Assembly (NCBI GenBank): GCA_018238545.1
Contig: JABCTC010000018.1
Coordinates: 6,310-70,309 of the forward strand
DNA: 64,000 bases
Direction of reading: 5' to 3'
DNA from: Candidatus Heimdallarchaeota archaeon
Lineage (GTDB): Archaea > Asgardarchaeota > Heimdallarchaeia > Heimdallarchaeales > Heimdallarchaeaceae
Shown here: positions 4,517 to 61,103 of the stretch, piece after piece
Position numbering within the stretch: position 1 is the first letter of the stretch
Layout: each line of letters begins with the position of its first letter
Notes under the pieces: model-generated
Database searches by the model: none
What the model was told of the DNA's origin: nothing
What the model saw: only the letters and a program-made list of their open reading frames with translations
Position numbers and translations under genes: made by a program

Positions 4517-4587
4517 ATTACCCTATATAAATCTCATTCAATAAATTTTTTTTAGATAAATTTAATAAATCATACTTTTCCCATTAG
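4517..4587. promoter_or_regulatory. Divergent AT-rich intergenic region between the methyltransferase (-) and ltaE (+); probable bidirectional promoter with TATA-like elements
   Basis: ctatataaat and tttaataaat motifs sit within 71 bp separating two divergent starts. The exact TATA/BRE positions cannot be assigned by eye. Confidence 0.3.
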
Positions 4588-5613: not shown

Positions 5614-5685
5614 AGTAATTTGCAAACCTTGAACCCTTTTTTTCTTCTTTTTCTATAACTCCCTAGGCTGTTCTTTTGAGCTTTT

Positions 5686-6618: not shown

Positions 6619-6732
6619 AGACTCTTCTTTTTTATTTATTTCAATTTTCCACACAATTTATGTCAGATTATCCTTCTGGTTCAAAGACTCGGAATACTTA
6701 AGATGTACTAATTATATGAAGAGAATATTACT

Positions 6733-8847: not shown

Positions 8848-8936
8848 ATAGTCAATATTTGCTCTTCCACAAATTTTATAATAGATTATTGTTTAAATTA
8901 TAGAAGTTAACAAAATTTCTATAGAACTTGCAATAG

Positions 8937-17002: not shown

Positions 17003-18736
17003 CTATTTGTTATCTTCTTTGATTAGTAAATATTCCCTGATTGTATTTTCTAAGTTCTCTTTAGTTATCCTATAATCTTTGCTGATTTTTCCATCTAACA
17101 TCTCTAAATGACGGAAACCTGGTCGGAGTAATGTTAGATCATGAGAGCATGTTACAATGGTTGCTTTGTTGATTCTAACTATGTCCATAAGAAGATCTAT
17201 GATATGTCTTGCAAGTTCTGCATCGAGGTTTGCAGTTGGCTCATCAGTAAGGATAATTTTTGTTTTCCTAGATAAAGCAGAAGCTAACGCTGCTCTTTGT
17301 TTTTCACCTTCTGATAGTTCATAGGGATACGCTTCTAAACGATGACCTATGTGGCATTCTTTGACAATGGAATCACTATATTCCACATCAAAATTTATGT
17401 CAGAAAAGATACTAGGAATTAGGAAATTCTCATGAACTTTTATAGGGTCAAAGAGGTTATTATGCTGAGTAACATAAGCAATATTAGCAAGTCTAAAAGC
17501 TGAAACTTCCCTTTCGTCTTCTTCACTAATTGGATATTTCATAACAGTCACAAGACCGTCATTTGGTGTGATTAAACCTGCAATCATGTTAAGAAGTGTA
17601 GTTTTGCCAACACCGCTGGGTCCAGATATGAAAACAAAGTCACCTTCATGGATATCTAAACTCATATTTTTGATAACTTCGTTATAACCTGCTTGAGAGT
17701 GGTAACCTTTTGTTACGTTCTTAACCGTAATCAGCTTTTTCTTCTTGTCAGGAGGGATAAATTCTCTGCTTAAGAGATGCTCTACATCCTTGAATGATAT
17801 CCGATCAACCTTATCTTCACTTTCCTTTGCAGGTTTAGAAATTATCTCGTAGATCTTGTCTCGACTTATTACTTCAGGGTTCCAGAACAGGCCTAGCTTT
17901 CTTGAAGGATGAGAATCAAATTCCACAACATCCTTGATAGCAGTAGTACTCTTAACTTCATCAGGAACTCGAACATAATTAGAAGCATCCATATAAGAAC
18001 GATTCATATCAGAAGAATGCATGAGAAATTCAAGCTCATCTCTTTCCATATCTCGACTTATTCCAGCTAGCCTACCATCTCTGATAATGAAGCTTTTCTC
18101 AAATATAGTTCTGAACCGAATATCATGAGTTACGACCACAATTGTTTTACCTAATGCTAGATTAACTTGCTTGATTGCATCGATAATGTCTTGCGTATTT
18201 TTCGTGTCGAGTTGACCAGTCGGTTCGTCAGCAAGTAGTATTAGAGGGTCCTTAGCAAGGGCTACACCCATAGACAAGCGCATTGCCTCACCACCAGAAA
18301 GTTTTCCTACAGTATTATTAAAGACATGCCTGAGATTCAGCAATTTTGCAATTTCTTCTATATCTTTCTTTGCTTGCTCTCTAGGTAAATAGAACATCTT
18401 CTTAGGAATCATCAGGTTTTGTCTAACTGATAAATGTGAGAAGAGATTGTCGCTAATAAATTGGTTAATCAGTCCAAGATGGTAAAAACGAAACTCCCGT
18501 CTCATATATTCATCAAGTTGGTCAAATCTTTGACCATTCATTATGATCTGACCGCTTGTAGGAAGTTCAATACCAGCAAGAATCTTTATGAGTGTAGTTT
18601 TACCTGCTCCTGAAGGACCAATTACAGAGACAAGTTCTCCTTCCTTTATGTCTAAATCTAATCCTCGTAGTGCTGCTACTTTATACTCAGTTCTAGGATC
18701 TTGAAATATTTTTATAATATCAATACATCTTATCAT
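17003..18736 (-). CDS. ABC transporter ATP-binding protein with two fused NBDs (paralog of 219..1964)
   Basis: MIRCIDIIKIF...GPSGAGKTT...LSGGEAMRL...LLADEPTGQLD...VTHD in the first NBD, and GPSGVGKTT...LSEGEKQRA...ILTDEPTANLD...CSHD in the second. About 65% identical to the first copy. The ORF extends to 18838, but the Met at 18736 aligns with the paralog and abuts the permease stop at 18742. Confidence 0.9.
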   Translation of the reverse strand: MIRCIDIIKIFQDPRTEYKVAALRGLDLDIKEGELVSVIGPSGAGKTTLIKILAGIELPTSGQIIMNGQRFDQLDEYMRREFRFYHLGLINQFISDNLFSHLSVRQNLMIPKKMFYLPREQAKKDIEEIAKLLNLRHVFNNTVGKLSGGEAMRLSMGVALAKDPLILLADEPTGQLDTKNTQDIIDAIKQVNLALGKTIVVVTHDIRFRTIFEKSFIIRDGRLAGISRDMERDELEFLMHSSDMNRSYMDASNYVRVPDEVKSTTAIKDVVEFDSHPSRKLGLFWNPEVISRDKIYEIISKPAKESEDKVDRISFKDVEHLLSREFIPPDKKKKLITVKNVTKGYHSQAGYNEVIKNMSLDIHEGDFVFISGPSGVGKTTLLNMIAGLITPNDGLVTVMKYPISEEDEREVSAFRLANIAYVTQHNNLFDPIKVHENFLIPSIFSDINFDVEYSDSIVKECHIGHRLEAYPYELSEGEKQRAALASALSRKTKIILTDEPTANLDAELARHIIDLLMDIVRINKATIVTCSHDLTLLRPGFRHLEMLDGKISKDYRITKENLENTIREYLLIKEDNK

Positions 18737-18741
18737 CTTTT

Positions 18742-21700
18742 TCACTCCAGATTCCTTGGTTGGTATTTTGCAAAATTTCTTTTCATTGATATATAGTATA
18801 TCCCGAAAAATATCAGAGGTATGCCCAGAAACATGCAAAGTATTAGCACGTATGGGAAAGGCAGAGTATAAGGCAATATATCATAAGACAATTCAACTAA
18901 GATTGAATTGAAAGCTCTCTCTAGTCCATAACCTGCTAAAGCACCTAATAACAGCCCAGGTACTATTGCAGCCATGAAAAGCTCTATAGCAGAAACAAGA
19001 ATGATTTGCCGCGTTGAAATCCCTATTTTCTTTAAAGCATCGTGTTTTGTTATTCGTCTCTGAAGAATTTTAAGAGGATTACTTAGACTTGTGAATATAA
19101 TTGCTGCAAGACAGATAATTACACCAAACACAAATTCCGCTACTATCATGGAATAGAAGGGGAAGTATTGTAGTAGAGCAGCATCCGCTATCTCTTTAGA
19201 ACTTCGGACATCGAATCCATAATCATCCTCAATCTCCTTTGATAATTCGATATGGTCTGTTAAAGGTTTAACTTCTATAATAAGTCGATCAAGTGAAATC
19301 CCGAAGACAGAAAGCCTATCAAAGATATTCAAAAAGTTATCTTTTGTCATTACCAGATTATATGTATATGACTGTGCTTCTCTTAAATCTCCTACATCAT
19401 ATATTATTGGGAAGTAATCAAACACTCCTGTGATATTGAAGTCTATATCATCGGCCTCTTCTTTCCTGAAGGCATATGAATCTCCTTCAGCTGTATAGAG
19501 TATTGAGAAAGGTCTAGAAACCAACATCGTATTATCTTCCTGAAGGCTTTTGATATCCTGTCCCCAATCTTCATAGAGATTTTTCGAAGGCGTATAAGAC
19601 GTTGACAAATACGTCAGAGGGTCATCTATAATTAAGACTGACATAGTTGCAGTGCCATGACTGGCTGAAAACTGCGTAATGTTTACTAGATTAGCAATAC
19701 CATTGTAATCTGCCCTAAAATCATCCAGAGAGACATTTACTAGGTTCCAATTATTGATATAAAGATCTCCACCACCATAGAAATAAGCTTGATTCATAAC
19801 TTGATTTTGAATCCTCACTGGCGTTATTATGAATGGCAGTAATAATCCAATTAGTATGGTATATGTGAGGAAAGTGTTATTGAATAAATTGATATCTGAT
19901 CGCACTTCAACTAATGAGAATGATGTTATTGTTTTTCTTGCAGACCAGGAAATTTTACTAATTGCAATCATCAAAAGCTTGTGTAAATCTTTTAGAAGAA
20001 GACCCACTCCAAGTAGTAACACCATTATGCCTATCCCCATCAAATAAATGAATATCAAGGCGATTGCTTGTAAACCAAATACCATGAAATAGAAACCTAC
20101 GAAACTCATAAGGAATAAACCTATCCCAAAAATAATCCCTCCAACAAATATCAATAGGAAGTAATGTATTCTAAGTTGTTTGAGTAATTGTACCCACCTT
20201 CTTGGTGGTTTTACTTTTTTCTTATCCTTTCTTGCCAGAATTATTATTCTAGGGACAGATATTAGTATTAAAATTACAAAAGTTAAACTCATTGCAATCG
20301 GAAGACTAGTCAGATTGATAGAAGATATTTGAGCATTAAATGTTAGGAACGTGTCTACTTGTAACAAAATCGGTATGAGAATCATCATTAAACCAAAACC
20401 TAACAAAGTCGAAGCTAATGATTCAAAGAGTTTCATCATAGAGTAGGAGAAAGTAATAGTCCCCGTTGAGACACCTTTTGATCTCAGAATTTTTATTTCT
20501 TGCTCAAAACTATTCCCAAATAATTCGTTAATCTCGAAAACAAGGAACAGTGCTAGATATAATATGGGAATAGATAGAAACAAGATTAAGACTTGAGACA
20601 TCAAGAGAATAAGCTCAAGACCTTGAAATTCAATAATTAATTCATATCCTATGTTCCAACTACCTGATGTAGAGGATAATGGATAAGGTCCTTCAGCAAT
20701 TAATAATGTAATTTCCGTGATAAGGTTAGTTATTTCTTGAGCATCTGAATTTTCAAAATCATATACAAATTGTATAAATCCATATAGTTGTAAATGATAG
20801 CGAGTCATATTTTCAAAATTTTTGAGAAAATACTCCGTTGGAACTAAAAGAGAATTATCATAAACTAAGCTTCTTATAGTGTCAGAGGGAATATCTTGTA
20901 GTTCACATGCATTCTCAATTTGAGAATAAGAGGGTTGTTGATATAAGCCAACAACTTTAAACTCGATCGAATCGATATCAACGTCTCCAGGTGAGCTGGT
21001 TGCATTTATGGTTATTGCATCATTAAGTGATATTCCATATGTTAAAGCCATGTTAACTTCCAACAAAGTTTCGAGTGGAGCTGAGGGTAATCTGCCACTC
21101 TCTAGAAAACTTCCAATCACCGTTGAATAATTCGACATATATCCGATATAACTCAAATAGCTGATATCTTCATATGGTGATAAATGAAAGCCTACAACGC
21201 TTGTTGACAATCCATAGAAGTAATTTTCCACCAACCTGGGCAAGATTTGTGATTTTGACCGCATCCCATACATAACCTCATCTAGAGCTTGATCGGTTAT
21301 GTTCGGGTTTAATCTGTCAGCTTCCAGGCCTGAAAAAGATAATAGGTCTAGGTTAAAGGTCAGAGATGCCACATCATCATTCTCAAAATCTGCGTTTCTA
21401 GCGTATTCTACAAATAAATTGCTTGCTTTCGAATCATATAGAGTCATACTCGTAACAATTATTGATGCAAGTATTGTGAGACCAAGAAGGCTGATAATGA
21501 GCCTTTTCTTATTAGCTTTCCACAAAGAAAATATCACACTGAAGATATTAGTGAGATATAACCAAGAATTGATGAACACTAATTTAAATGTCGAAACATC
21601 TGGTTTAATAGGTCTTATAAGGAAATTCTTTAGTTTGACAAATCCCCTATTTATCCTTTTTCTGAAAATAAGATAAATTATTCCAAGAATCCCAGTTATA

Positions 21701-23040
21701 ATTACAAAAATATACCAATATCTAATCCAGAAATATACAAAATCGGAATAATTTACTAGGTCAAATATGTACGCAATAGTTGGAAGTTCAACATTTGTAT
21801 TTGTCTTAACATTTATTGACATTATATAACGTTGTTTGAAATTATATTCATCAAGCGTTGAAGATTCTATTAAAGAAGGGTAGCTCGCTATATATGTTCT
21901 ATTTTCAAAAAGTGTAATTGAAACCCTGTCATTTGAACCTTCATCCATGTATGAATAGTAGGACATAACATCTTCTATCATAAAGGAAAATAATGAAATT
22001 GTTTGATTGTCATCCTCAACTATTGAAATTTTATTTGATTGAGTATACCGATTGTATCCAGATGGACTAAATATTTCAACATAAAGTGTAGTAACAAATA
22101 AGAAGAAAGATGTGTTCTGATATGAGATCATTCTGAATTTCTCATAAGTATATATACCTAAATTGATAGAGAGAAAAGACTTCTTAGATATTGTATCATT
22201 CACAGAAAAAGAAACACTGTAAAATAGTTGAAACTCAAGCATCGCAAGATGGAATTTACCATCTTCACCAATAAATAACTGCACTCTATCATAATTACCT
22301 TCCATAACAAAAACTGTAGAATTATAATAGGAGAGATTACCGGTTATACCAGCAATAATAAGCGTTCTCACTGCAGTATAACTACTTTCATTATAATAAA
22401 AGACATCATAAAATGCGAACAATTCCTCATCAAGCATGTGCAGAGATACTAAATATACTGAAGTGAAAGGTAGAACAAATATTTTTTCAACAATTGTTCC
22501 ATTCAAATAAACTTTTGTTTGAGTAATTGAAGTTCCTGTGGTTTCTAGTTCACGAGAAAGAAGGTAAAAATAGTTATTACTAGGTATAATATCTACATTA
22601 ATATAAGCTGATCTACTAGTGAATACTTGCTTGAAATTGCTTCCATTCTCACTCCAACTAAACATCTCTATTACTGTGTTGTAAAAACCATCAGAAAAAG
22701 AGAAGAGAAGAACAACATTCTCGTCCATAGTATAGACCTTGAAGATGTAACCTGAAAATATATTCCTAAAAATTTCTACCATTTGATTATTGTAACTGTG
22801 AAAAATCACAAATGTGTTGTTCTCAAAGTCCTTCTTCACAAACACGTGTAATTGCCCCTCGCTGTCTACAACATTAGTAGAGGAAAATCTTGTAGAATAA
22901 ATATCTCCTGGGTCAGAAAGAAATATTGAAGTTTGTTGATCTACTGCATTCACAGAAGTAGCTATGAATGTAGACAAAAATAAGAAACAGAATAATATGG
23001 GTAATAACTTCTTCTTATTGAAACTAACCATAACCATCAA
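18742..23040 (-). CDS. ABC transporter permease, FtsX-like, 1432 aa, with large extracytoplasmic domains
   Basis: N-terminal signal/TM (LPILFCFLFLSTFIATSVNA), an extracellular region of about 450 aa, two clusters of TM helices, and a C-terminal FtsX-like 4-TM bundle. Co-oriented with and adjacent to the tandem-NBD ATPase. Confidence 0.8.
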   Translation of the reverse strand: MMVMVSFNKKKLLPILFCFLFLSTFIATSVNAVDQQTSIFLSDPGDIYSTRFSSTNVVDSEGQLHVFVKKDFENNTFVIFHSYNNQMVEIFRNIFSGYIFKVYTMDENVVLLFSFSDGFYNTVIEMFSWSENGSNFKQVFTSRSAYINVDIIPSNNYFYLLSRELETTGTSITQTKVYLNGTIVEKIFVLPFTSVYLVSLHMLDEELFAFYDVFYYNESSYTAVRTLIIAGITGNLSYYNSTVFVMEGNYDRVQLFIGEDGKFHLAMLEFQLFYSVSFSVNDTISKKSFLSINLGIYTYEKFRMISYQNTSFFLFVTTLYVEIFSPSGYNRYTQSNKISIVEDDNQTISLFSFMIEDVMSYYSYMDEGSNDRVSITLFENRTYIASYPSLIESSTLDEYNFKQRYIMSINVKTNTNVELPTIAYIFDLVNYSDFVYFWIRYWYIFVIITGILGIIYLIFRKRINRGFVKLKNFLIRPIKPDVSTFKLVFINSWLYLTNIFSVIFSLWKANKKRLIISLLGLTILASIIVTSMTLYDSKASNLFVEYARNADFENDDVASLTFNLDLLSFSGLEADRLNPNITDQALDEVMYGMRSKSQILPRLVENYFYGLSTSVVGFHLSPYEDISYLSYIGYMSNYSTVIGSFLESGRLPSAPLETLLEVNMALTYGISLNDAITINATSSPGDVDIDSIEFKVVGLYQQPSYSQIENACELQDIPSDTIRSLVYDNSLLVPTEYFLKNFENMTRYHLQLYGFIQFVYDFENSDAQEITNLITEITLLIAEGPYPLSSTSGSWNIGYELIIEFQGLELILLMSQVLILFLSIPILYLALFLVFEINELFGNSFEQEIKILRSKGVSTGTITFSYSMMKLFESLASTLLGFGLMMILIPILLQVDTFLTFNAQISSINLTSLPIAMSLTFVILILISVPRIIILARKDKKKVKPPRRWVQLLKQLRIHYFLLIFVGGIIFGIGLFLMSFVGFYFMVFGLQAIALIFIYLMGIGIMVLLLGVGLLLKDLHKLLMIAISKISWSARKTITSFSLVEVRSDINLFNNTFLTYTILIGLLLPFIITPVRIQNQVMNQAYFYGGGDLYINNWNLVNVSLDDFRADYNGIANLVNITQFSASHGTATMSVLIIDDPLTYLSTSYTPSKNLYEDWGQDIKSLQEDNTMLVSRPFSILYTAEGDSYAFRKEEADDIDFNITGVFDYFPIIYDVGDLREAQSYTYNLVMTKDNFLNIFDRLSVFGISLDRLIIEVKPLTDHIELSKEIEDDYGFDVRSSKEIADAALLQYFPFYSMIVAEFVFGVIICLAAIIFTSLSNPLKILQRRITKHDALKKIGISTRQIILVSAIELFMAAIVPGLLLGALAGYGLERAFNSILVELSYDILPYTLPFPYVLILCMFLGIPLIFFGIYYISMKRNFAKYQPRNLE

Positions 23041-23100
23041 ACTACAAAGATAATTATAAACCTAACCCAATACAGATTTCGCATTTTCATGATTAAGTTT

Positions 23101-46243: not shown

Positions 46244-49200
46244 TTAATTTCTTCTTTTTCTTAAAGCAAAAGTTAGAGCTAGAAGTGTAAGTACAGAAGC
46301 GAATAGAAAAATACTCGATTGGTTAGTGTCTTCAGGATGATCTTCTGGATCGGTAGGATCGGTACCATAAGTAAACAATTCTTCACTATCACTCCAACCA
46401 TCACCATCAGTATCAGAATTGTTGGGATTAGTGTTTTGATAATACTCGTCTAAATTGGTTAAAGTATCACCATCAGGATCGTAACCTGCATCATTGACTG
46501 AAGGATCAAGGCCATTATCGACTTCCCAACCGTCAGGCATGCCATCGTAGTCAGAATCAGTGCTATTTGGGTCAGAATTGTAAGAATATTCTTCGAGATT
46601 AGTCAAACCGTCACCATCAAGATCTGAAGAAGCATCAGAAGGATTTAATGGGTCAAGACCATTATCATATTCCCAACCATCGGGCATCAAATCATCATCA
46701 GTGTCACTGTCGAGAGGATCTGTATTAGTATTCATATATTCCTCGTAGTTAGATAAACCATCCGCGTCAGGATCTTCACCACCATCATGAACAAGAGGAT
46801 TTGTGCCATATTCAACTTCCCAGTCATCCCACATCGAGTCATAATCTGTGTCCCAATATTGAGGATTAGTTCCATGAGTATATTCTTCAAGGTTAGTCAA
46901 TGTATCGCCATCAGGATCTAAAGCAGAATCATCGGATAAAGGATTGAGACTATTGTCGACTTCCCAGCCATCAGGCATCAAATCATCATCAGAATCGGAA
47001 TCTTGAGGGTCAGTACCAATGGTATATTCGTCCAAATTATACAATCCATCACTATCAAGGTCAGAATATGCATCATCAACCAAAGGGTTGAGAGTGTTAT
47101 CAACTTCCCAGCCGTCAGGCATGGAATCACCATCTGTGTCGTCGTTATTTGGATCAGTGTTATTAGTATATTCTTCAAGGTTAGTCAATGTATCGCCATC
47201 AGGATCTAAAGCAGAATCATCAATCTCAGTATTCAGTCCATGTTGGTCTTCCCAGATATCATTCATTCCATCGTTATCAAAATCGTAAAATGAGGGATAA
47301 TCAGTGTTATCAGTAGGGTCAGTACCAAGTGTAACTTCTAAACCATCATTAAATCCATCATCGTCTGAATCAGTATCTAGAGGATAAGTACCAATAGTAT
47401 ATTCTTCAAGATTAGTTAAATCATCACTATCAGGATCTAAAGAAGAATCATCAACGAGAGGATTAAGACCGTTATCAACTTCCCAGCCGTCAGGCATGGA
47501 ATCACTATCTGTATCACTATCATTTGGATTAGTTCCCCAAGCAATTTCTTCATCATCCAAAAGCCCATCATCGTCTGAATCAGCGTCATTTGGATCAGTG
47601 TCATTAGTATATTCTTCAAGATTAGTTAAATTATCACTATCGGAATCTAAAGAAGAATCATCAACAAGAGGGTTGAGGCCGTTATCTACTTCCCAGCCAT
47701 CGGGAATTAAATCATTGTCTGAATCAGCGTCATTTGGATCAGTGTTATTAGTATATTCTTCGAGATTGGTTAAATCGTCACTGTCTGGATCTAATGAAGC
47801 ATCAGAAGCATCTAGTGGGTTAAGACTATTATCAACTTCCCAGCCATCTAGCATTAAATCATTGTCTGAATCAGCGTCATTTGGATCAGTGTCATTAGTA
47901 TATTCTTCAAGGTTGGATAAACCATCACTATCGGAATCTAAAGAAGAATCATCAACAAGAGGATCGAGACCATTATCAACTTCCCAACCATCAGGCATCA
48001 AATCATCATCAGAATCAACGTCATTTGGATTAGTTCCAGCTACTACTTCTTCATTATCTAATAGTCCATCACCGTCTGAGTCTGGGTCGAGAGGGTCGGT
48101 GCCCGCAGTATATTCTTGAAGATTAGTCAATGTATCGCCATCAGGGTCTAATGCAGAATCATCAACAAGTGGGTTGAGACTATTGTCCACTTCCCAACCA
48201 TCAGGCATGCCATCGTCATCTGAGTCGGAATCATTGGGGTCGGTTCCAGCTGCTACCTCTTCATTATCAAGTAGTCCATCATTGTCGGAATCATTATCGT
48301 TTGGATCAGTATCATTAGTATATTCTTCAAGGTTAGTCAATGTATCGCCATCAGGATCTAAAGAAGAATCATCAACAAGAGGATCGAGACCATTATCAAC
48401 TTCCCAACCATCAGGCATCAAATCGTCATCAGAGTCGGAATCTTGAGGGTCAGTACCATTAGTATATTCGCCTAAATTGTCCAAACCATCACTATCAGGA
48501 TCTAAAGAAGAATCATCAACTAAGGGATTAAGACCATTGTCCACTTCCCAATTATCTGGCATCAAATCATCGTCAGAATCGTTGTCATTGGGGTCGGTAT
48601 TATTTGTGTATTCTTCGATATTGGTTAAACCGTCACCATCTGGATCTAAAGAAGAATCATCAACTAAAGGATCGAGACCATTGTCGACTTCCCAGCCATC
48701 GGGCATTAAATCATCATCAGAGTCATTATCATTGGGATCTGTTCCTTGAATATATTCACCATAATTATCCAAACCATCACTATCAGGATCTAAAGAAGAA
48801 TCATCAACCAAAGGATTAAGGCTGTTATCAACTTCCCAGCCATCAGGCATCAAATCGTTGTCTGTGTCATTGTCGTTTGGATCGGTTCCAGCTACAATCT
48901 CTTCATTATCTAAGAGTCCGTCATCATCAGAGTCATTGTCATGGGGGTCAGTGTTATTTGTATATTCTTGGAGGTTGGTCAGACTATCTCCATCAGGATC
49001 TAAAGCAGAATCATCAACGAGAGGATCGAGACCATTATCGACTTCCCAACCATCGGGCATGGAATCGCTATCTGTGTCATTGTTGTTAGGGTCTGTTCCA
49101 TATAGATATTTTTCTTCTCTATCATCTATCCCATCATTATCTGTATCTATTACGTTCAATGGGTAGAGGTCTACTCCGTTTCCTGGACCGCTTATTGCAT

Positions 49201-50593
49201 AAGTTCCTGTTTCATTCCAATTTGACCAATAATTTCCTTCATTTGTATTCACGTCATACCAAGTATTTACTGTATCACCGTACGCTTGTGAATCTTGCCC
49301 TATACTGTTGTTTATGAAGATATTATGATATATTCTGTTAGGGTTGGAACCGCCTAAATATAATCCATAACCATATTCCGATACTTCATTATAATTGTTT
49401 ACAAAAATATTGTTAGTTATATTGGAATAACTTGCCCAAAATGTATGTAGTCCATATCCATTGTTCTTACTACATGTATTATTATCAATGATAGAATAAT
49501 AAGGACCTAAGATATATATTCCAGCGTTGCTGTTATTCTCACAAGTATTATTTGTAACTACATTACTTGAATACCTAAGATACATTCCATAGATGTCGTT
49601 GTTATTGCAAGTGTTGTTGGTTACAGTTGTAGAATCAGATTCATAGACATATATCCCTGAATTGTCATTATTTGCACAGGTATTGTTCGCAACATTTGTA
49701 TTTGCAGCATATTCAATATAGATTCCATTCACATTTCCTGTACAAGTATTTTCTGCAACAGTTGGAGAAGAAGAAGCTTCAGCAATATGAATTCCGTTAT
49801 TACCGTTGTTCTCAATAGTATTGTTTCTTATTTCAGGATAAGCTGTCCAACGAATTCGTAGCCCATACCCAGTATTTTCTGAACAGGTATTGTCAGTCAC
49901 AGTTGCATTATTACCATTATAATCGATATATATACCTAGAGCATTACTTTCACAAGTATTGTTATCAATGATTACTGATGCACTATTATAACTGTATATT
50001 CCATTGCCTGAATTGTTTGAGCATATGTTGTTTGTTATGGTAGAATTAGTTGATTTCCATAGAACAATACCATCAGTATTGTCTGTACATACATTCCCGT
50101 CAATTGTAGTATTCAGACTTTGCAGTATGTACATTCCATATTGAGCATTATTTGCACAAGTATTATTTATTACTTTAGCTGTTCCCGCAGCAACACCAGT
50201 GATACGTATTCCATAGTTCAATCCATCTAAATAATTATCACGAATAACAAAATGCATTGTCGTACCTGTAACGTAAATAGCTGTGTCGTCAGTTGTTGTA
50301 ATGTTATAATTATTTATTATATACGGATCACCTTCACTTCCATCCCCTGAAGTACTAGAAGCTGCCAAAGTAGCATTATTCCATATATAAATATCTTCTG
50401 TAAGTTCTACGTAAGCCATCTTATTATAGTCTTGATCGTTAGGCATGTATACTTCACTATCAAAACTAGGTTCTACTGTGCTTGTATTAACCAAATTGAA
50501 ACTGATTGCAACACTCATAACTAAGCACAAAGCCAGAAAAATTGAAACTCCTTTTTTATAGGATCCAAAATATTTTTTTAAATTATTTATCAC
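46244..50593 (-). CDS. Giant cell-surface protein: signal peptide, right-handed beta-helix (NosD/pectin-lyase-like) domain, about forty EF-hand-like Ca-binding repeats, C-terminal TM anchor
   Basis: N-terminal hydrophobic signal (ISIFLALCLVMSVAISF). Residues 100-470 have repeated NNTC.(N)N..GIYI beta-helix rungs. Residues 480-1410 are tandem units of about 45 aa alternating DSDDDLMPDGWE and DPDGDGLTNLEEY, each fitting the 12-residue EF loop D-x-D-x-D-G-x-x-x-x-x-E. C-terminus SSIFLFASVLTLLALTFALRKRRN. Confidence 0.85.
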   Translation of the reverse strand: MINNLKKYFGSYKKGVSIFLALCLVMSVAISFNLVNTSTVEPSFDSEVYMPNDQDYNKMAYVELTEDIYIWNNATLAASSTSGDGSEGDPYIINNYNITTTDDTAIYVTGTTMHFVIRDNYLDGLNYGIRITGVAAGTAKVINNTCANNAQYGMYILQSLNTTIDGNVCTDNTDGIVLWKSTNSTITNNICSNNSGNGIYSYNSASVIIDNNTCESNALGIYIDYNGNNATVTDNTCSENTGYGLRIRWTAYPEIRNNTIENNGNNGIHIAEASSSPTVAENTCTGNVNGIYIEYAANTNVANNTCANNDNSGIYVYESDSTTVTNNTCNNNDIYGMYLRYSSNVVTNNTCENNSNAGIYILGPYYSIIDNNTCSKNNGYGLHTFWASYSNITNNIFVNNYNEVSEYGYGLYLGGSNPNRIYHNIFINNSIGQDSQAYGDTVNTWYDVNTNEGNYWSNWNETGTYAISGPGNGVDLYPLNVIDTDNDGIDDREEKYLYGTDPNNNDTDSDSMPDGWEVDNGLDPLVDDSALDPDGDSLTNLQEYTNNTDPHDNDSDDDGLLDNEEIVAGTDPNDNDTDNDLMPDGWEVDNSLNPLVDDSSLDPDSDGLDNYGEYIQGTDPNDNDSDDDLMPDGWEVDNGLDPLVDDSSLDPDGDGLTNIEEYTNNTDPNDNDSDDDLMPDNWEVDNGLNPLVDDSSLDPDSDGLDNLGEYTNGTDPQDSDSDDDLMPDGWEVDNGLDPLVDDSSLDPDGDTLTNLEEYTNDTDPNDNDSDNDGLLDNEEVAAGTDPNDSDSDDDGMPDGWEVDNSLNPLVDDSALDPDGDTLTNLQEYTAGTDPLDPDSDGDGLLDNEEVVAGTNPNDVDSDDDLMPDGWEVDNGLDPLVDDSSLDSDSDGLSNLEEYTNDTDPNDADSDNDLMLDGWEVDNSLNPLDASDASLDPDSDDLTNLEEYTNNTDPNDADSDNDLIPDGWEVDNGLNPLVDDSSLDSDSDNLTNLEEYTNDTDPNDADSDDDGLLDDEEIAWGTNPNDSDTDSDSMPDGWEVDNGLNPLVDDSSLDPDSDDLTNLEEYTIGTYPLDTDSDDDGFNDGLEVTLGTDPTDNTDYPSFYDFDNDGMNDIWEDQHGLNTEIDDSALDPDGDTLTNLEEYTNNTDPNNDDTDGDSMPDGWEVDNTLNPLVDDAYSDLDSDGLYNLDEYTIGTDPQDSDSDDDLMPDGWEVDNSLNPLSDDSALDPDGDTLTNLEEYTHGTNPQYWDTDYDSMWDDWEVEYGTNPLVHDGGEDPDADGLSNYEEYMNTNTDPLDSDTDDDLMPDGWEYDNGLDPLNPSDASSDLDGDGLTNLEEYSYNSDPNSTDSDYDGMPDGWEVDNGLDPSVNDAGYDPDGDTLTNLDEYYQNTNPNNSDTDGDGWSDSEELFTYGTDPTDPEDHPEDTNQSSIFLFASVLTLLALTFALRKRRN
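46360..49160 (-). repeat. Tandem coding repeats (thrombospondin-type-3-like / EF-loop calcium-binding units)
   Basis: About 20 near-identical units of about 135 nt. These produce the spurious Ser-rich antisense ORFs on the + strand (47496..48119 and others). Confidence 0.8.
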
Positions 50594-50840: not shown

Positions 50841-52067
50841 ATGATGTTAATTAAAGGGAAAGAATCAGCAAAATGGATAGAAACAACCATCCCTTTAATA
50901 CTTAATCCAGGAACAACAAAGCAGCTTTATTTGCAGAAAGCTCAAGCTAAGATCCTAGCTTTCGCTAAACAGTTGCTACCTTTTAAACAGCATAGTGCTT
51001 CAGCTCTACACTTCCACCATCTGGTCTATACAAAGTTCAAGTATCTAGGCATACAAAGTCAAGTACAAGAAGCGGTGCAGCGGAGAGTGTATGCAGCAAA
51101 ACGAGCGAAAACGTTCGCTCATCTACCTATGGAATTTAATTTTCCGCGGAGTGGGAGGCTCATTCTCTCCAAGAGAGGGAACGCACTTGTTAAACTCTCT
51201 CCTCTCAAACAACGTATAGCCGTACCTATCTTGATGAACGGTGGGTGGAGAAGAGTGGAAGAGCACAGAAAAGGAGGGTGGGAGGCTCACAGCTGTAAAG
51301 TGTTCAAAAGAAAACGTATCTGGGTTATGCATCTTATCATGCGTAAAGCACTCCCACTTCCCCAAGAAGTGGAAGGAACCATCGGTGTGGACATAGGAAG
51401 AAAGATCATGGCAGCAATCACGGTCAATCATCCTAATTTTCCCTTTGTTGAACAATATCTTGGGAAAGATCTGGCGTGGAAACAACACCAGTTCTATAAT
51501 CGTAGAAAAACCTTGCAAAAATATGCTGCGCAAGGAGATAGACGTGCACGGCGTGCACTCAACAGATTACGAAGAAAAGAAACAACTTATGTTCAAACCC
51601 GTTGTGCTCAACTAGCACACGAAATAGTAGACTTAGCTGTAATCACCCGTTCAGCTATAGTTTTGGAAAATCTTACGCATTTACGAAGAATGTGGACAAA
51701 ACAAGCGATGAAACGAAAGAGAGGAGGGAAGAAGACCAGACGTGCACTCAATCGCTGGTCATACAGTCTCTTTCATACTACTTTGACTCGAGTAGCACAA
51801 TTACACCATGTTCCTGTGGTATTTGTCCGTCCGCAATATACCAGTCAAACCTGCTCACAGTGTGGACATCGAAGTAAGAACTCACGAACCACTCGTGACC
51901 TATTTAGGTGTGTCAATTGTAATTTCACTGTTAACGCTGACCGCAATGCATCACGTAACCTAGCACTGCTAGGGCAAGTAGTTTTTGGTCTCCCCTTCTT
52001 CAATGCTTATCGATCTTTCCTTCCCGTTCCTACTGAGCGAAGAATCCTGCGTTCTTCAGTATCTTAG
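50841..52067 (+). CDS. tnpB: TnpB (IS605 OrfB-family RNA-guided nuclease-like transposon protein)
   Basis: RuvC-I IGVDIGRKIMAAI (Asp), RuvC-II AIVLENLTHL (Glu), a zinc finger CSQCGH...CVNCNF, and RuvC-III NADRNASRNLA (Asp). All catalytic residues are intact. Confidence 0.85.
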   Translation: MMLIKGKESAKWIETTIPLILNPGTTKQLYLQKAQAKILAFAKQLLPFKQHSASALHFHHLVYTKFKYLGIQSQVQEAVQRRVYAAKRAKTFAHLPMEFNFPRSGRLILSKRGNALVKLSPLKQRIAVPILMNGGWRRVEEHRKGGWEAHSCKVFKRKRIWVMHLIMRKALPLPQEVEGTIGVDIGRKIMAAITVNHPNFPFVEQYLGKDLAWKQHQFYNRRKTLQKYAAQGDRRARRALNRLRRKETTYVQTRCAQLAHEIVDLAVITRSAIVLENLTHLRRMWTKQAMKRKRGGKKTRRALNRWSYSLFHTTLTRVAQLHHVPVVFVRPQYTSQTCSQCGHRSKNSRTTRDLFRCVNCNFTVNADRNASRNLALLGQVVFGLPFFNAYRSFLPVPTERRILRSSVS

Positions 52068-55342: not shown

Positions 55343-57121
55343 TTACTTCTTCTTGGTTTTAGGTTTAGCTGTAGATTTCATCTTACTGTTAATAAGAGTA
55401 ATAGTTAACAAGAAAAATATCAGTTGTGAACCTAAAACAATTCCAGAAAAGATTAGTAACTCACCAATTTCGAGTGAAGCGAAGATACCAGTAGAAGTTT
55501 CTTCTATAACTTCAACAAACTCAACATTAGAGACAAGACTGTCTCCGTATTCATTTATAGCTACAATGGCGTAATAATAGTAACCGGTTGCATTAACAGT
55601 ATCAGTATAAGATGCAGTAGTAGAAGTATCTATTGGTGTTAATCCTGAAACTGAGGAGAATTGAGATGTTTCTCTAAATATTTCATAATTTGTTGCATCT
55701 TGTACTGATGACCAGCTCAAAAAAATATTTCCAACAGAGATAGGGTTTGGATTTATCTCATCTAAGACGGGTTGTATAGGAGTTCCTACGAATTTCTTGT
55801 AGAAAAGATCATTATCTGCACCTGAACCTAATAAACTTGGATCATTATCGAGGAAAATCGTATGCACATGACCTAAAGAATCAACTGCTAAATCTGGGTA
55901 GAAAGAACTAGCTATGTGGTTGTAAGTAAGAATAGCTAAAGAAGACCAAGTGTGTGTATTTAAATCAAGATACTTGAATAAGATATTATTACCTGTACCT
56001 CCTCCACCAACATCTGTAGTATCTTCCCAAATAACATAAATACTATTTGTACCGTCAACATCAACTTCTGGACGAAAAGCAGTTCCTGTACTCTCTGTTG
56101 AAACAATGTCTGATATTGACCATGAATCAAGACTGGAGTCATAGCTCTTATAGAAAATATCAGCGTCAGTTCCTGCTCCTTCATAATCTGAATAGTCGTA
56201 CCAAACAATGTGAATCATACCATCTACTCCTTTAGAAAGACTAGGTGATGCAGATGTGCTATCACTTTCGGAACTTATTAATTTTAAAGGAGACCAAGTA
56301 ATGAGATCTTTGTCCAGTTGTCGATAAAATACATCTTGGTCAGTACCAGCTCCTAAAACATCTGAGAGATCATTCCAAGCTATTATTACGTTTTCTTGTG
56401 AATCAAGTTGTATTTCTGGATTATATGCAGATTGTATACTTAAATCCGTAACTATTTCAGCTGCGGACCAAATCCCTACTGCAGATCTATGTTTGTAATA
56501 AATATCTTGATCCCCATCAACGATTATGATATCTGCAAAATCCTCCCAAACAACATGTGTTACACCATTTGAATCAGCTACTATCGATACGTAAGTAGAT
56601 GTACTGTCACTTTCTACTGAAACAAGTTCAACTGCTCCCCATCCAGAAGAAGTTTTTCCCCTATAACAGATATCTCTATCAGGACCTGATCCCAAAATAT
56701 CATCTGATTCAAGCCATACTATATGTATTGAGCCTGCTGAATCAATAGCAATTTCAGACACTTCAGAAAAACTTGAACTACCAGTTGATACAAGTTCTAG
56801 TTCAGACCAGCTCTTAGTTACATAATCAAATTTCTTATAAAACACGTCTAAGTCAGTTCCTGCACTCAGAATATCTTCACCTGAGGAGGTTACTATGTGT
56901 ATATCATTTCTGTTATCAACAGCGATTCTAGAATAAGAATTAGGTGTATCAAATTCTGTGGAAATTAGTTCCAGTGGTTCCCACCACCAAGAAGATAGAT
57001 CTTTGTTATTTACAGATTGTTCTGTCATATTCTCATATATCATTGAGTTTGTTAACGAAGATATTGGAATTATCATTAACAACATTATCATAAAAATACT
57101 AGCAATTCTTTTCAATTTCAC
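55343..57121 (-). CDS. Surface protein: signal peptide, about 7 beta-propeller-like repeats, FN3-like domain, C-terminal TM helix + Lys-rich tail
   Basis: MKLKRIASIFMIMLLMIIPISS signal. Seven units of about 55 aa of the form W.xLElvStxS....S.iA.Ds.G.iHivW.d.sDiLGsGtD.DifYk. FN3-like segment PISVGNIFLSWSS...YEIFRET...YYYAIVAINEYGDS. C-terminus LLIFSGIVLGSQLIFFLLTITLINSKMKSTAKPKTKKK. Confidence 0.75.
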   Translation of the reverse strand: MKLKRIASIFMIMLLMIIPISSLTNSMIYENMTEQSVNNKDLSSWWWEPLELISTEFDTPNSYSRIAVDNRNDIHIVTSSGEDILSAGTDLDVFYKKFDYVTKSWSELELVSTGSSSFSEVSEIAIDSAGSIHIVWLESDDILGSGPDRDICYRGKTSSGWGAVELVSVESDSTSTYVSIVADSNGVTHVVWEDFADIIIVDGDQDIYYKHRSAVGIWSAAEIVTDLSIQSAYNPEIQLDSQENVIIAWNDLSDVLGAGTDQDVFYRQLDKDLITWSPLKLISSESDSTSASPSLSKGVDGMIHIVWYDYSDYEGAGTDADIFYKSYDSSLDSWSISDIVSTESTGTAFRPEVDVDGTNSIYVIWEDTTDVGGGGTGNNILFKYLDLNTHTWSSLAILTYNHIASSFYPDLAVDSLGHVHTIFLDNDPSLLGSGADNDLFYKKFVGTPIQPVLDEINPNPISVGNIFLSWSSVQDATNYEIFRETSQFSSVSGLTPIDTSTTASYTDTVNATGYYYYAIVAINEYGDSLVSNVEFVEVIEETSTGIFASLEIGELLIFSGIVLGSQLIFFLLTITLINSKMKSTAKPKTKKK

Positions 57122-57291
57122 TGAAGTTCACCAAATACAACTGTAATGTTCTTAATCTATAAATATTCTGCTAACCTTTAAGGATAAAATTCCATTAAAA
57201 AATCAAAACATCAGAATAAAACCATTCAATGATTAGATTGAAAGTATTATTTTATATTGTAAAACAAAAGGAAAAATGAAAAGAAGAAGAA

Positions 57292-59076
57292 TTACTTTTT
57301 CTTCTTTCCTGTTTTAGGTTTGGACGTAGATTGAATTTTACTATTAATAAGAGTAATAGTTAGCAAGAAAAATATCAGTTGTAAGCCTAGAACAATTCCA
57401 GAAAAGATTAGTAACTCGCCAATTCCGAGTGAAGAAAAGATACCTGTAGAAGTTTCTTCTATGACTTCAACAAACTCAACATTTGAGACAAGGCTTTCTC
57501 CGTATTCATTTGTCGCTACTACAGCGTAATAATAGTACCCGGTGGCATTAACAGTGTCAGTATAAGATGTTAATGTAGAAGTGTCTATTGCCGTCAATCC
57601 TGAAACTGAGGAGAATTGAGATGTTTCTCGATATATTTCATAATTTATTACATCTTTTGCTGATGACCAGCTCAAAGAAATATTTCCAATAGAGAGAGGA
57701 TTTGGGTTTATTTCAGCTAAGATTGGTTGCATAGGTGTTCCTACAAATTTCTTGTAAAAAAGGTCCCAATCTGAACCAGAGCCTAGTAAACTTCCATCAG
57801 TATCAAGAAAAATAGCATGAACATGTCCTAAGGAGTCAACTGCTAAATCTGGATTAGTAGAAGCAGATGCATGATCATAAGTAAGAATAGTTCGAGAAGA
57901 CCAAGTGTGTGTATTTAAATCAAGATACTTAAAAAAGATATTAGTACCAATACCCACGCCACCAACAGCTAAAGAATCTTGCCAAATAACATAAACATAT
58001 TCTGTACCATAAACATCAATCTCTGCATTAAAAGAACTTCCAGTATTCGCGGTTGAAACAACTTCCGTGACGGACAACGAATCTAGATTGGAATCATAAT
58101 ACCTATAGAGAATATCAGAGTCAGTTCCTGAGCCCAAGATATCAGAAGAATCTTGCCAAACAATATGGAGCTGACCTTCTACACCTTTAGAGATTTTAGG
58201 TCCTGTAGAGCTGAGATCACTTCCAGAACTAATTAATTTAATGGGAGACCAAGTGATGAGGTCTTTATTCAGTTTTCGATAGAAAACATCTCCGTCAGGA
58301 CCAGAACCTAAAATATCTGTGAGATCATACCAAACAATAAAAATATTTTCTTGGGAATCAAGTTGAATATCTGGATTATATGTGGAAGATGTACTCATAT
58401 CAGTAACTATTTCAGCTGCTGACCATATTCCTGCTGCAGATCTATGTTTGTAATAAATATCTTGATCCCCATCAGCAATTAAGTAATTTGCAAAATCCTC
58501 CCAAATCACATGTGCGACACCATTTGAATCAGCTATAATCGCTAAGTAAGTTGATGTACTGTCACTTTCTGTTGAAACAAGTTCAGTAGATCCCCATCCA
58601 GAAGAAGTTTTTTGCCTATAACAGATATCTCTATCGGTACCTGAACCCAAAATGTTATCTGATTCAAGCCAAGCTATATGTACGGTTCCCGATGGATCAA
58701 CTGCAATTTCTGATACTTCAGAAGCACCCGAACTATCTGTTGAAACAAGTTCAAGTTCAGACCAGCTCTTTGTCTCATAAATATATTTCTTATAAAAAAC
58801 ATCTCTATCAGTTCCTGCACTCAAAATATCATCAGTGGAGTAGGTTATAACATGTATATTATTCTGGATATCAATAGCAATTTTAGGTACATAATTATTG
58901 GCATCAGATTCAGCAGAGAGAAGCTCTAAGGGTTCCCACCACCAAGAAGATAGATCATTATCAATTACGTTCTGATTTGTCATATTATCATAAATCTTTG
59001 AGTTTGTTAACGAAGAAATAGGAATTATCATTAACAACATTAGCATAAAAACACAAGCAATTCTTTTCACTTTCAC
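57292..59076 (-). CDS. Surface beta-propeller-repeat / FN3 / TM-anchored protein (paralog)
   Basis: Same architecture as 55343..57121 and about 70% identical. Ends ...LINSKIQSTSKPKTGKKKK. Confidence 0.75.
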   Translation of the reverse strand: MKVKRIACVFMLMLLMIIPISSLTNSKIYDNMTNQNVIDNDLSSWWWEPLELLSAESDANNYVPKIAIDIQNNIHVITYSTDDILSAGTDRDVFYKKYIYETKSWSELELVSTDSSGASEVSEIAVDPSGTVHIAWLESDNILGSGTDRDICYRQKTSSGWGSTELVSTESDSTSTYLAIIADSNGVAHVIWEDFANYLIADGDQDIYYKHRSAAGIWSAAEIVTDMSTSSTYNPDIQLDSQENIFIVWYDLTDILGSGPDGDVFYRKLNKDLITWSPIKLISSGSDLSSTGPKISKGVEGQLHIVWQDSSDILGSGTDSDILYRYYDSNLDSLSVTEVVSTANTGSSFNAEIDVYGTEYVYVIWQDSLAVGGVGIGTNIFFKYLDLNTHTWSSRTILTYDHASASTNPDLAVDSLGHVHAIFLDTDGSLLGSGSDWDLFYKKFVGTPMQPILAEINPNPLSIGNISLSWSSAKDVINYEIYRETSQFSSVSGLTAIDTSTLTSYTDTVNATGYYYYAVVATNEYGESLVSNVEFVEVIEETSTGIFSSLGIGELLIFSGIVLGLQLIFFLLTITLINSKIQSTSKPKTGKKKK

Positions 59077-59180
59077 TGTAATTCACCAAATACAACTGTA
59101 ATGTTCTTAATCTATAAATATTCTGCAAAACTTTGGGAAAAACATATAATCGGCTATTTAATGGATTAGTTTGAAAGAAA

Positions 59181-59611
59181 ATGAGCGTCAAAAAGGAAAT
59201 TTCTTTTCCTATATGGTCATCCGTTATGATTTTAGAAATGATAATTATGATGGTTCAAGCCATAATATTTGGTTCGTTAATATACATTATTCCTTGGTGT
59301 TGGTGTATAATACAACCACTTCCAATTCCAGCTGTTCTTCAAATCATTGTTACAGACTGTCTCGCAATTTCTATATTTCTTATATTTGTTATCTACTCTC
59401 GAAGGGGGGTTTTCCTCAAAAAAGTCTATATGGTCTGTTGAGATTACTTAACATCATTTTCAGCGTAGTTCTAACAATTTGTTTCTTCATTGATATTCAA
59501 GGATTTGAATTACACCTGAGTGGATATTTACTTGTATATTCTCTTCCCTTTTGTTTCGTGATACCTCTAATATCATTGGTTTTACTACTAAAAAGCAAGA
59601 AGAAAGCTTGA
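59181..59611 (+). pseudogene. Small polytopic membrane protein gene disrupted by a frameshift in a G6 tract (paralog of 59683..60123)
   Basis: The N-terminal half reads in frame 0 (MSVKKEISFPIWSS...VIYSRRGVF-stop) and the C-terminal half in frame 2 (...GGFPQKSLYGLLRLLNIIFSVVL...LLLKSKKKA). Both halves align to the intact paralog (MSFLVWSS...IFYSRKTYFPNLRLYVLLRIINIIVSAIL...FLIKSKNTD). The frame switch is at gggggg, 59404..59409; inserting one G restores a single ORF. Confidence 0.55.
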
Positions 59612-59682
59612 GATTAGAAATTCCTTGTAGTTTTCTAGAATGATACTGGAAAGATTTTTAAACATTTATTAATTCAAATTTT

Positions 59683-60123
59683 TTGGTAAATATGAACGAA
59701 AGAACAGAGATGTCGTTCCTTGTTTGGTCATCTTTTATTGTATCAGAAATGGTATTCATGATCCTTCAATCTTTTATATTTCCACTATCAATTACTGGAA
59801 TTTTAATTTGTTCATGCCTTCGATTTGATTTCATCTTTTCCTATCAAATTTTCATAATCATAATTGATATTCTTATATTCTCAACATTCTGTTTTGCTAT
59901 ATTTTACAGTAGAAAAACATACTTTCCAAATTTGAGATTATATGTTTTATTGAGAATAATAAACATAATTGTAAGTGCAATATTATTGGGTATCTTCCTC
60001 TGGGTTATACGAAATAAAATACTATCTTTGACTGATTATATTCTTACATTTTCTTTGATTTTATGCTTCTTAATGCCCCTCTTAACATTGATATTTCTAA
60101 TTAAAAGCAAAAATACAGATTAG
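59683..60123 (+). CDS. Small polytopic membrane protein (4 TM), intact paralog
   Basis: 146 aa with four hydrophobic segments and a Lys-rich C-terminus. Confidence 0.55.
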   Translation: MVNMNERTEMSFLVWSSFIVSEMVFMILQSFIFPLSITGILICSCLRFDFIFSYQIFIIIIDILIFSTFCFAIFYSRKTYFPNLRLYVLLRIINIIVSAILLGIFLWVIRNKILSLTDYILTFSLILCFLMPLLTLIFLIKSKNTD

Positions 60124-60146
60124 CAAAAAAACTTTTTAATAAACAA

Positions 60147-60557
60147 ATGAATCAATACACGACATTATTCGTTGGTGTTATCATGATAGGTCGAAGTATA
60201 AACTGTTATATCTGTGGATCCACCAAGATCAAAGAAACGTATCGAAGCAAGTACGGAAGGGAACGAATTATTCAATCCAATTTTGGGAGGCGAATGTATT
60301 GTTCTAAGGAATGTAAGATGATGGGAGTTTGGAAAAGAAAAATGATTGAGGGCATTATAGCTATAATTATCTTCACTATCGGTGAAGTTTCTCTACTTTA
60401 TGTTAATCTACGATGGGATGCTGATTGGATGATAATTGCAAATAGTATTTTAATTCCTCTTGTTGGAGTTGTTATTGGTTCTTTAGTTTTGTTCCAAGGA
60501 ATTAAAGGTAAGAGACTGAAGGAAGAGTTTGAATTAAGATCCTATAATGGGGTTTAA
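60147..60557 (+). CDS. Small membrane protein with N-terminal Cys motif (CYIC...CSKEC) and 2 TM helices
   Basis: 136-aa ORF. A zinc-ribbon-like spacing is followed by IIAIIIFTIGEVSLLYV and ILIPLVGVVIGSLVLF. Confidence 0.4.
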   Translation: MNQYTTLFVGVIMIGRSINCYICGSTKIKETYRSKYGRERIIQSNFGRRMYCSKECKMMGVWKRKMIEGIIAIIIFTIGEVSLLYVNLRWDADWMIIANSILIPLVGVVIGSLVLFQGIKGKRLKEEFELRSYNGV

Positions 60558-60572
60558 TCATAAAACTATTTC

Positions 60573-61103
60573 GTGTTTTCCAATATTTATAGACTAATCT
60601 TAAAAAGTATAAGCATTATAATTAATGTAGATAGAATGAAAGAAACAAAGTATTCCATGTCAGGTTTTATGAAAATCTTCAAGATGCCAATAATGACAGA
60701 ATTAACTTTATTATTATTTGTGATTATATTTTTTGAAAGTTTTTTCTTAACCTTAAAACTTGATGGAAATTTAATTTGTACAGAGTATAAATTTAGTTCA
60801 GGTCTTCTTGTTATTCTCTTGTTTACTTCATTATTTTCTTTTGCAAATTTTGGCAATATTATAACTGAAGATGCAAAGAGATCCGTTTTTCGAACTTTCA
60901 TGATAACAAGAGGATTAGCTATTACTTATTCGATTATAAGAAGAATAACAATAACATTTTATCATTTTAACTACTGTGGTTGGGTAAATTATTGGTACTA
61001 TCTTTTAGGGGATATTTTAATTCTAATATTGATTTTTGAATATGGATATGCAATAACCTATCACATAAGAACGAAGTATAAAACTATAGAAAAAAAAGCA
61101 TAA
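60573..61103 (+). CDS. Hypothetical polytopic membrane protein
   Basis: 176 aa with 4-5 hydrophobic segments. Confidence 0.4.
   Translation: MFSNIYRLILKSISIIINVDRMKETKYSMSGFMKIFKMPIMTELTLLLFVIIFFESFFLTLKLDGNLICTEYKFSSGLLVILLFTSLFSFANFGNIITEDAKRSVFRTFMITRGLAITYSIIRRITITFYHFNYCGWVNYWYYLLGDILILILIFEYGYAITYHIRTKYKTIEKKA

Follow-up and report, generated by a model that had tools for sequence, protein, structure and literature searches.

Candidatus Heimdallarchaeota DNA of 64,000 nucleotides (the window) contains a small membrane-protein gene, gene A, whose coding sequence passes from one reading frame to another within a patch of short homopolymers. Is this gene decaying, is it switched on and off, is it recoded during expression, or is the break an error of assembly?

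A membrane-protein gene split over two reading frames

We compared gene A with gene B, the small membrane-protein gene that follows it. The features are as follows.

59181..59611, + strand: gene A, split over two reading frames
59181..59441, + strand: N-terminal part of gene A in frame 0 (ATG at 59181, 86 codons and TGA at 59439-59441), with helices 1-2
59410..59611, + strand: C-terminal part of gene A in the -1 frame (FPQKSLYGLL...KSKKKA, stop at 59609-59611), with helices 3-4
59692..60123, + strand: gene B, an intact 143-aa paralog with four predicted transmembrane helices
59171-59611: region of P0002, a mis-called product

The frame-0 open reading frame (ORF) of gene A (59181..59441) aligned without gaps to residues 1-78 of B (35% identity, E 2e-08), and the -1-frame reading at 59405..59608 aligned, also ungapped, to residues 78-142 (45% identity, E 4e-15). 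The two alignments meet at Phe78, which can be read in either frame within the T run, and the downstream frame is -1 relative to the upstream frame. When one base is added, gene A encodes a 143-aa protein that is colinear with the 143-aa B (39% identity over 137 aa, ungapped, E 7e-32). The reading frame is disrupted by a 1-nt deletion both relative to B and relative to nine intact orthologue sequences. We concluded that gene A is a single gene broken by one frame error, beside an intact paralog. An earlier note on this DNA had read the locus in the same way. The two half-alignments bear out its claim that a 1-nt frame error within a homopolymer-rich patch splits a small membrane-protein gene, and the neighbouring paralog, a 143-aa ORF, is intact, as it had stated. 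A protein identical to that of gene B is on record as P0004.

As it stands, the frame-0 product carries an 8-residue out-of-frame tail (LKKVYMVC) after helices 1-2. This true N-terminal ORF of 86 aa is not on record in the protein collection. What is on record for the window contig is P0002, a 132-aa product whose first ~64 residues are an out-of-frame translation of the N-terminal half of gene A; its C-terminal half is 98% identical to the -1-frame part.

A and B belong to a very small family. An exhaustive profile search of 1.84 billion cluster representatives recovered five members, one of which is the mis-called P0002. The members with a source name, as well as the related loci, come from Heimdall-type metagenome-assembled genomes. 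The only Pfam match for A/B was a sub-threshold one to MtrE (16.8 bits versus a cut-off of 26.6), and there was no NCBIfam match. We predict that A and B are four-helix integral membrane proteins of ~143 aa, found only in a few Heimdallarchaeaceae-type archaea. An AlphaFold model from a six-sequence alignment was of low confidence (pLDDT 55, pTM 0.40), and we used only its helix positions. In this low-confidence model, helices are predicted at residues 9-44, 49-74, 81-106, and 113-142, and the frameshift maps to the loop between the second and third of these. The N-terminus, the helix 2-3 loop (SRRGVFPQK), and the C-terminus all read as basic in the sequence, and we infer that both termini face the cytoplasm. 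The end of gene A varies among relatives: the window has AAG at 59597-59599 where L001-L006 have a TAG stop, which makes their gene A four codons shorter (…LLLKS* versus …LLLKSKKKA*). The longer form agrees in length with paralog B and with P0006, a more distant orthologue.

Site, authenticity, and age of the lesion

Three homopolymer runs lie at the break.

59404..59409, + strand: G6 run; G4 in every intact orthologue, with two A->G substitutions here
59410..59413, + strand: T4 run, where the deletion is placed most parsimoniously; every intact A-type orthologue has T5
59418..59423, + strand: A6 run, identical in the L001-group orthologues; not the lesion

Two related lineages of Heimdallarchaeaceae have intact A-type orthologues (on record for 12 contigs, of which we read 9 sequences), and all carry G4·T5 at the site (…AAGGGGTTTTTCC…). 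The protein search identified P0001, an intact 139-aa orthologue that is 94% identical to repaired gene A and carries the source name hypothetical protein, Candidatus Heimdallarchaeaceae archaeon. P0001 is encoded on nine contigs, six loci of which we fetched (L001-L006). The DNA of these six is mutually identical across the gene, and the site reads CGAAAAGGGGTTTTTCC. The more distant P0006 (56% identical) is encoded on L010-L012, where the site reads ATAAGGGGTTTTTCC. The window reads CGAAGGGGGGTTTTCC (also written CGAAGGGGGG-TTTTCC), i.e., G6·T4. Because the orthologues of both lineages read G4·T5, the comparison indicates that this is the ancestral, functional configuration and that G7 is not the intact state. 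The earlier note had pointed out that a seventh G restores the frame, which is formally true, but the natural intact state in all intact orthologues is G4·T5.

Two A->G changes in the window convert a Lys codon (AAA) to Arg (AGG) and make the G4 run into G6. Like the orthologue, frame 0 still encodes Gly-Val-Phe. A gap relative to the orthologue costs two mismatches when placed in the T run and three when placed in the G run. For this reason, the lesion is most likely a 1-nt deletion that shortened T5 to T4, and the base was most likely not lost from the G run. The G6 run had been taken for the switch point, and the orthologue DNA instead puts the missing base in the adjacent T run. More generally, a homopolymer at a frame break proves neither the site of the lesion nor a switch. 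In ~7.3 kb aligned to L001, the gene A deletion (59410-59414) is the only uncompensated coding indel that is not a multiple of three; the others are multiples of three or closely compensated pairs. The window lineage has three changes clustered in 13 nt at the lesion, which is unusual. We considered gene conversion from paralog B as the source of this cluster and rejected it, as B has no G run at the homologous position. The P0006-type orthologue has an in-frame A9 run (Lys-Lys-Lys) at L010 5313-5321 (gene coordinates 313-321), also present in L011 and L012. This run lies a few bases downstream of the conserved GGGGTTTTT, and all three contigs have an intact gene.

Loss of one base within a homopolymer patch is the classic error context, and the window comes from a metagenome-assembled contig. 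A related JGI contig (L010) has another homopolymer (A8) frameshift, in an F390-synthetase-related gene. These points would fit a sequencing or assembly error in a genome whose gene A is really intact, as the earlier note had allowed. However, the frameshifted allele is common to three separately built assemblies: the window, Logan SRR32546279, and JGI 3300040951. P0003, a cluster mate of the mis-called P0002, led us to the Logan contig (L008), which is 100% identical to window 59100-60677 (1578 bp). The JGI contig (L009) differs from the window by 2 SNPs over 4668 bp, at 60570 and 60978, which indicates that it represents a separate population and not the same consensus. All three consensus assemblies, from at least two populations, read G6·T4. 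The five other G6/G7 runs in the window (6169, 9265, 13184, 31166, and 33721) lie inside the spans of long intact ORFs, and dozens of A/T runs of at least 7 are present without an ORF break. A screen of the window for overlapping long same-strand ORFs found no other split gene. Furthermore, the two substitutions at the site relative to the orthologues could not be produced by a length miscall. Because three assemblies share the allele, the other G6/G7 runs are intact, and no other gene is split, an assembly artefact is unlikely, and the disruption appears to be genuine. We would give an intact gene A hidden by miscalling less than one chance in ten.

One candidate for a second split gene, at 17003-18880 and 18742-23061 on the - strand, was rejected; it consists of two separate genes, one for an FtsX-like permease and then one for an ABC ATPase. 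The 1432-aa protein encoded there (18742-23040, -) ends in an FtsX-like permease domain and is followed by the double ABC ATPase gene.

We then asked how far gene A has diverged. Relative to the orthologue, it has 9 synonymous and 8 non-synonymous differences (17 substitutions), with a dN/dS of 0.26. By half, dN/dS is 0.34 in the N-terminal part and 0.15 in the out-of-frame C-terminal part, where the counts are tiny (4 synonymous and 2 non-synonymous) and, as in the other half, too few for a formal test. No further stops or indels were found in gene A relative to the orthologue. Thus, gene A has neither the relaxed selection nor the secondary lesions expected of a pseudogene, although dN/dS values of 0.26 and 0.15 have low power with 17 substitutions. 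The C-terminal value, with its counts of 4 and 2, would also be expected if that half were still translated. Because the out-of-frame half shows no decay, as judged by its dN/dS and the lack of further stops or indels, our data suggest that the deletion is recent.

Phase variation, recoding, and gene fission

A second suggestion of the earlier note was slipped-strand phase variation, in which mispairing at G6 (or at T4 or A6) reversibly toggles gene A and so varies a component of a surface locus. Several features are consistent with this. The lesion is within a G6·T4…A6 patch, G/C runs of at least 6 are uncommon in a window of 33% GC (6 seen, about 3 expected), gene A adjoins surface-protein genes, and the rest of its coding sequence is undamaged. 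A general role as inactivation switches has been proposed for homopolymer tracts in prokaryotes, archaea among them (PMC2831843; for phase-variable contingency loci, see also PMC3315296). In the same work, prokaryotic genes, those of archaea included, had an excess of poly(A)/poly(T) tracts, whereas poly(G)/poly(C) tracts were generally under-represented in coding genes (PMC2831843).

The comparison among relatives speaks against switching. The intact orthologues of two lineages carry a short, stable G4·T5 (nine sequences, identical within each lineage), and the three window-type consensus assemblies, from at least two populations, have the same tract length. Related strains do not maintain a long tract; only the window lineage has G6, which substitutions created. 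Length polymorphism with ON and OFF states was not seen among the three consensus assemblies and the collection's gene calls. An ON state would need T5 or G7, and the observed history is one of substitutions and one deletion, not of length polymorphism. The tract also lies in the middle of the gene and not near its 5' end. High switching rates usually come with tracts that are as long as G6 or longer. Among the gene calls of the protein collection, the only window-type products are the frameshifted P0002 and P0003, with no in-frame allele; the cluster of P0001 has a single member. In a metagenome contig collection, which evidently does not hold these samples, neither a variable-gap exact pattern across the tract nor a scan with the family profile gave a match. 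A scan of genome contigs returned one locus (L007), with B-type genes only. With no length heterogeneity in three consensus assemblies, no intact window-type allele on record, and a short, stable tract in relatives, we consider reversible switching of gene A improbable.

We also considered a related possibility, which we rate as a long shot. G6·T4·A6 might be a newly evolved contingency site that switches gene A, as one copy of a redundant membrane-protein pair, next to a surface-protein cassette that duplicates rapidly, or a site where low-level -1 slippage keeps the gene partly expressed. For a contingency site, the Lys->Arg substitutions (G4->G6) may have created the slippage-prone tract. 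If this were true, it would be a case of homopolymer-driven phase variation of a surface locus in Archaea, and heterogeneity of the tract in reads, if ever shown, would make it a rare candidate for phase variation in this domain.

Could full-length protein still be made from the frameshifted gene? Some 143-aa protein would result, at a reduced level, if ribosomes shifted to the -1 frame or transcription slipped in the G6/T4/A6 patch. The required shift is indeed -1, and three codons within 20 nt permit perfect re-pairing of a single tRNA in the -1 frame (GGG at 59406, TTC at 59412, and AAA at 59421), all upstream of the frame-0 stop. A Shine-Dalgarno-like AGGGGGG lies 8 nt upstream of the A6 run, and the low C-terminal dN/dS noted above would fit continued translation. 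Frameshifting by -1 is documented in Archaea, in the fucA1 gene of S. solfataricus, which has an in-register A-AAA-AAT heptamer, flanking rare codons, and a putative stem-loop (PMC1616953). In gene A, however, we found no zero-frame X-XXY-YYZ slippery heptamer within the overlap, from 59181 to 59439, and no downstream RNA structure beyond shuffled controls (fold z of -0.34 for 59395-59520 and +0.23 for 59424-59490). Orthologues do not share the frameshifted arrangement, as they would if it were a conserved recoding site; each is one in-frame ORF, and the flanking sequence is almost unchanged. Spontaneous slippage in the patch is conceivable, but runs of 4-6 nt are short for efficient polymerase slippage. 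Taken together, these findings make recoding very improbable.

Finally, the break lies precisely in the helix 2-3 loop, and both halves are otherwise undamaged, as would be expected if the gene had undergone fission into two-helix polypeptides that are made separately and assemble into a functional four-helix unit. Yet no in-frame ATG follows the break to start the C-terminal half. Long ORFs in the -1 frame begin only at TTG 59171 and ATG 59213 and would add an out-of-frame, non-membrane-like leader of 64-78 residues, and no relative has a split arrangement. We regard fission as extremely unlikely.

The surface-protein locus, possible redundancy, and comparison with known systems

The neighbours of A and B are listed below.

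55343-57121, - strand: tandem paralog of the surface-protein gene
57292..59076, - strand: predicted surface protein of 594 aa, divergent to gene A and a conserved neighbour of the A/B family
59077..59180: intergenic region between gene A and the divergent surface-protein gene; highly conserved over 59100-59180, with 3 differences from relatives in 81 nt
60147-60557, + strand: small membrane-protein gene after B (23-nt spacer), with an N-terminal CxxC…C…C zinc-ribbon-like motif
60573-61103, + strand: next small membrane-protein gene (15-nt spacer), with no counterpart in L001

The flanking ~600-aa proteins have a signal-peptide-like N-terminus, repeated '…GxD.D[IV]FY…' blades, and, at the C-terminus, a membrane anchor that ends in a Lys tail; their Pfam match to BNR_4 is sub-threshold (26.2 bits versus a cut-off of 27.3) or faint. 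Upstream of the A/B locus are an F390-synthetase-related enzyme (TIGR02304) and an acyltransferase-3, and the flanking genes also include one for an NAD-dependent epimerase. The earlier description of the region as a surface-structure locus is thus reasonable, given the ~600-aa surface-type proteins, the acyltransferase-3, and the epimerase. The A/B family is consistently linked to ~600-aa surface-protein genes, either divergent or convergent, and we infer that A and B are accessory membrane components of a surface-protein cassette. The zinc-ribbon-like gene at 60147-60557 is kept beside B in L001-L007 and L014; neither its product nor that of 60573-61103 matched Pfam or NCBIfam. The zinc-ribbon gene at first resembled a second disrupted gene in relatives (72 aa in L001, L004, and L005; 140 aa in L002, L003, and L006), which we rejected. 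The difference is one of start choice by the gene caller, and the 140-aa ORF is intact in L001.

We observed several signs of rearrangement around the locus. The window has two tandem copies of the ~593-aa surface-protein gene (55343-57121 and 57292-59076, both -), and L001-L006 have one. L007 9983-11322 shares 94% identity with the 3' part of the second copy but only ~83% with the first copy. L007 (Heimdallarchaeota 7H_bin003) has a tandemly repeated ~2.96-kb cassette at 4079-9965, made up of a 592-aa surface protein (-), a B-type 146-aa membrane protein (+), and a 125-aa Zn-ribbon membrane protein (+). Between its copies, the B and Zn-ribbon genes are identical and the surface-protein gene nearly so. 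The surface-protein family looks mosaic and recombining. Divergence from L001 is also uneven. Between window 59100-60123 and L001 3977-5001, gene A and the sequence upstream of it are ~96% identical (pS 0.096) and gene B is 90% identical (pS 0.236), and an alignment segment across the adjoining surface-protein gene (57274-60555) averages ~83%. The gene A region may have been recently exchanged between lineages.

In L010, the F390-synthetase-related gene (1497-2838, -) is split into 343 and 118 aa at an A8 run (GGTAAAAAAAATCAG). The break is near 1819-1829, and the reading ...GKKIRNDDLQ... would return with A7. In this locus family it is the second homopolymer frameshift, whether real or an error. 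Farther upstream in the window, ~7 kb from gene A, a 408-aa ORF (50841-52067, +) has a Cas12f1-like TNB domain (E 1.1e-18), which marks its product as TnpB-like, from an element of the IS200/IS605 type. The very large ORF at 46244-50593 (-) encodes 1449 aa with right-handed beta-helix/NosD and TSP3 repeats.

The copies of A and B are distributed among the genomes as follows.

A-type copy only: L010
B-type copy only: L007, L014
Both A and B copies: window, L001-L006

Because lineages carry A only, B only, or both, the two genes may be redundant or interchangeable, as this pattern of presence suggests. The loss of gene A would likewise be tolerated, since paralog B, 80 nt downstream, is intact and related genomes manage with A, B, or both.

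Together, these data suggest that gene A, one of two tandem paralogs, is probably an ordinary pseudogene produced by a recent frameshift; its family is very small, lineage-specific, and uncharacterised. A frameshift pseudogene of this sort is an already known kind of feature. The G run would have grown from G4 to G6 through the Lys->Arg (AAA->AGG) change in the window lineage, and one base would have been lost there from the adjacent T5 run. The deletion would fall in the short, positively charged loop between helices 2 and 3, and translation would stop 8 codons on, to leave an 86-residue two-helix stub with helices 3-4 untranslated. The recency of the lesion, the redundancy with B, and the loss of function of gene A all appear likely from the sequence comparisons. 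Simple decay was one of the alternatives offered by the earlier note and fits best among them, but gene A has no additional disabling mutations and the lesion looks recent. The note had also proposed comparing the locus in related strains. In the relatives with G4·T5, the gene is intact.

The main gains are a corrected annotation and the placement of the lesion in the T run instead of the G run. A single frameshifted pseudogene beside an intact paralog is the appropriate annotation for the locus, with P0002 treated as a mis-called chimera. Of wider interest is a tiny, lineage-specific four-helix family tied to tandemly duplicating ~600-aa surface-protein genes in Heimdall-type archaea.

How does gene A compare with known systems? 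Poly-G and poly-C tracts underlie phase-variable surface genes at the contingency loci of Neisseria, Haemophilus, Campylobacter, and Helicobacter. Like these bacterial loci, gene A has a G run within its coding region, belongs to a surface-associated locus, and is turned OFF by a change of frame. Unlike them, its tract is short (G6, and G4 in relatives), no long version of it is conserved, and its length does not vary among assemblies; the lesion is in the adjoining T run, the tract lies mid-gene and not near the 5' end, and the host is an archaeon. The resemblance to fucA1 of Sulfolobus solfataricus lies in two overlapping ORFs in a -1 relation with an A-rich run in the overlap (PMC1616953), but the in-register A-AAA-AAT, rare codons, and putative stem-loop of fucA1 contrast with gene A, which has no in-register heptamer and no structure signal. 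Gene A is closest to an ordinary frameshift pseudogene of a tandem duplicate: it has an uncompensated 1-nt deletion in a short homopolymer with a stop 8 codons later, an intact adjoining paralog, intact orthologues in sister lineages, and no recoding signals. It departs from the typical case in that its family is uncharacterised and extremely narrow and in that it has no secondary lesions and a low dN/dS, which suggests that the pseudogene is very young or that its loss is weakly deleterious.
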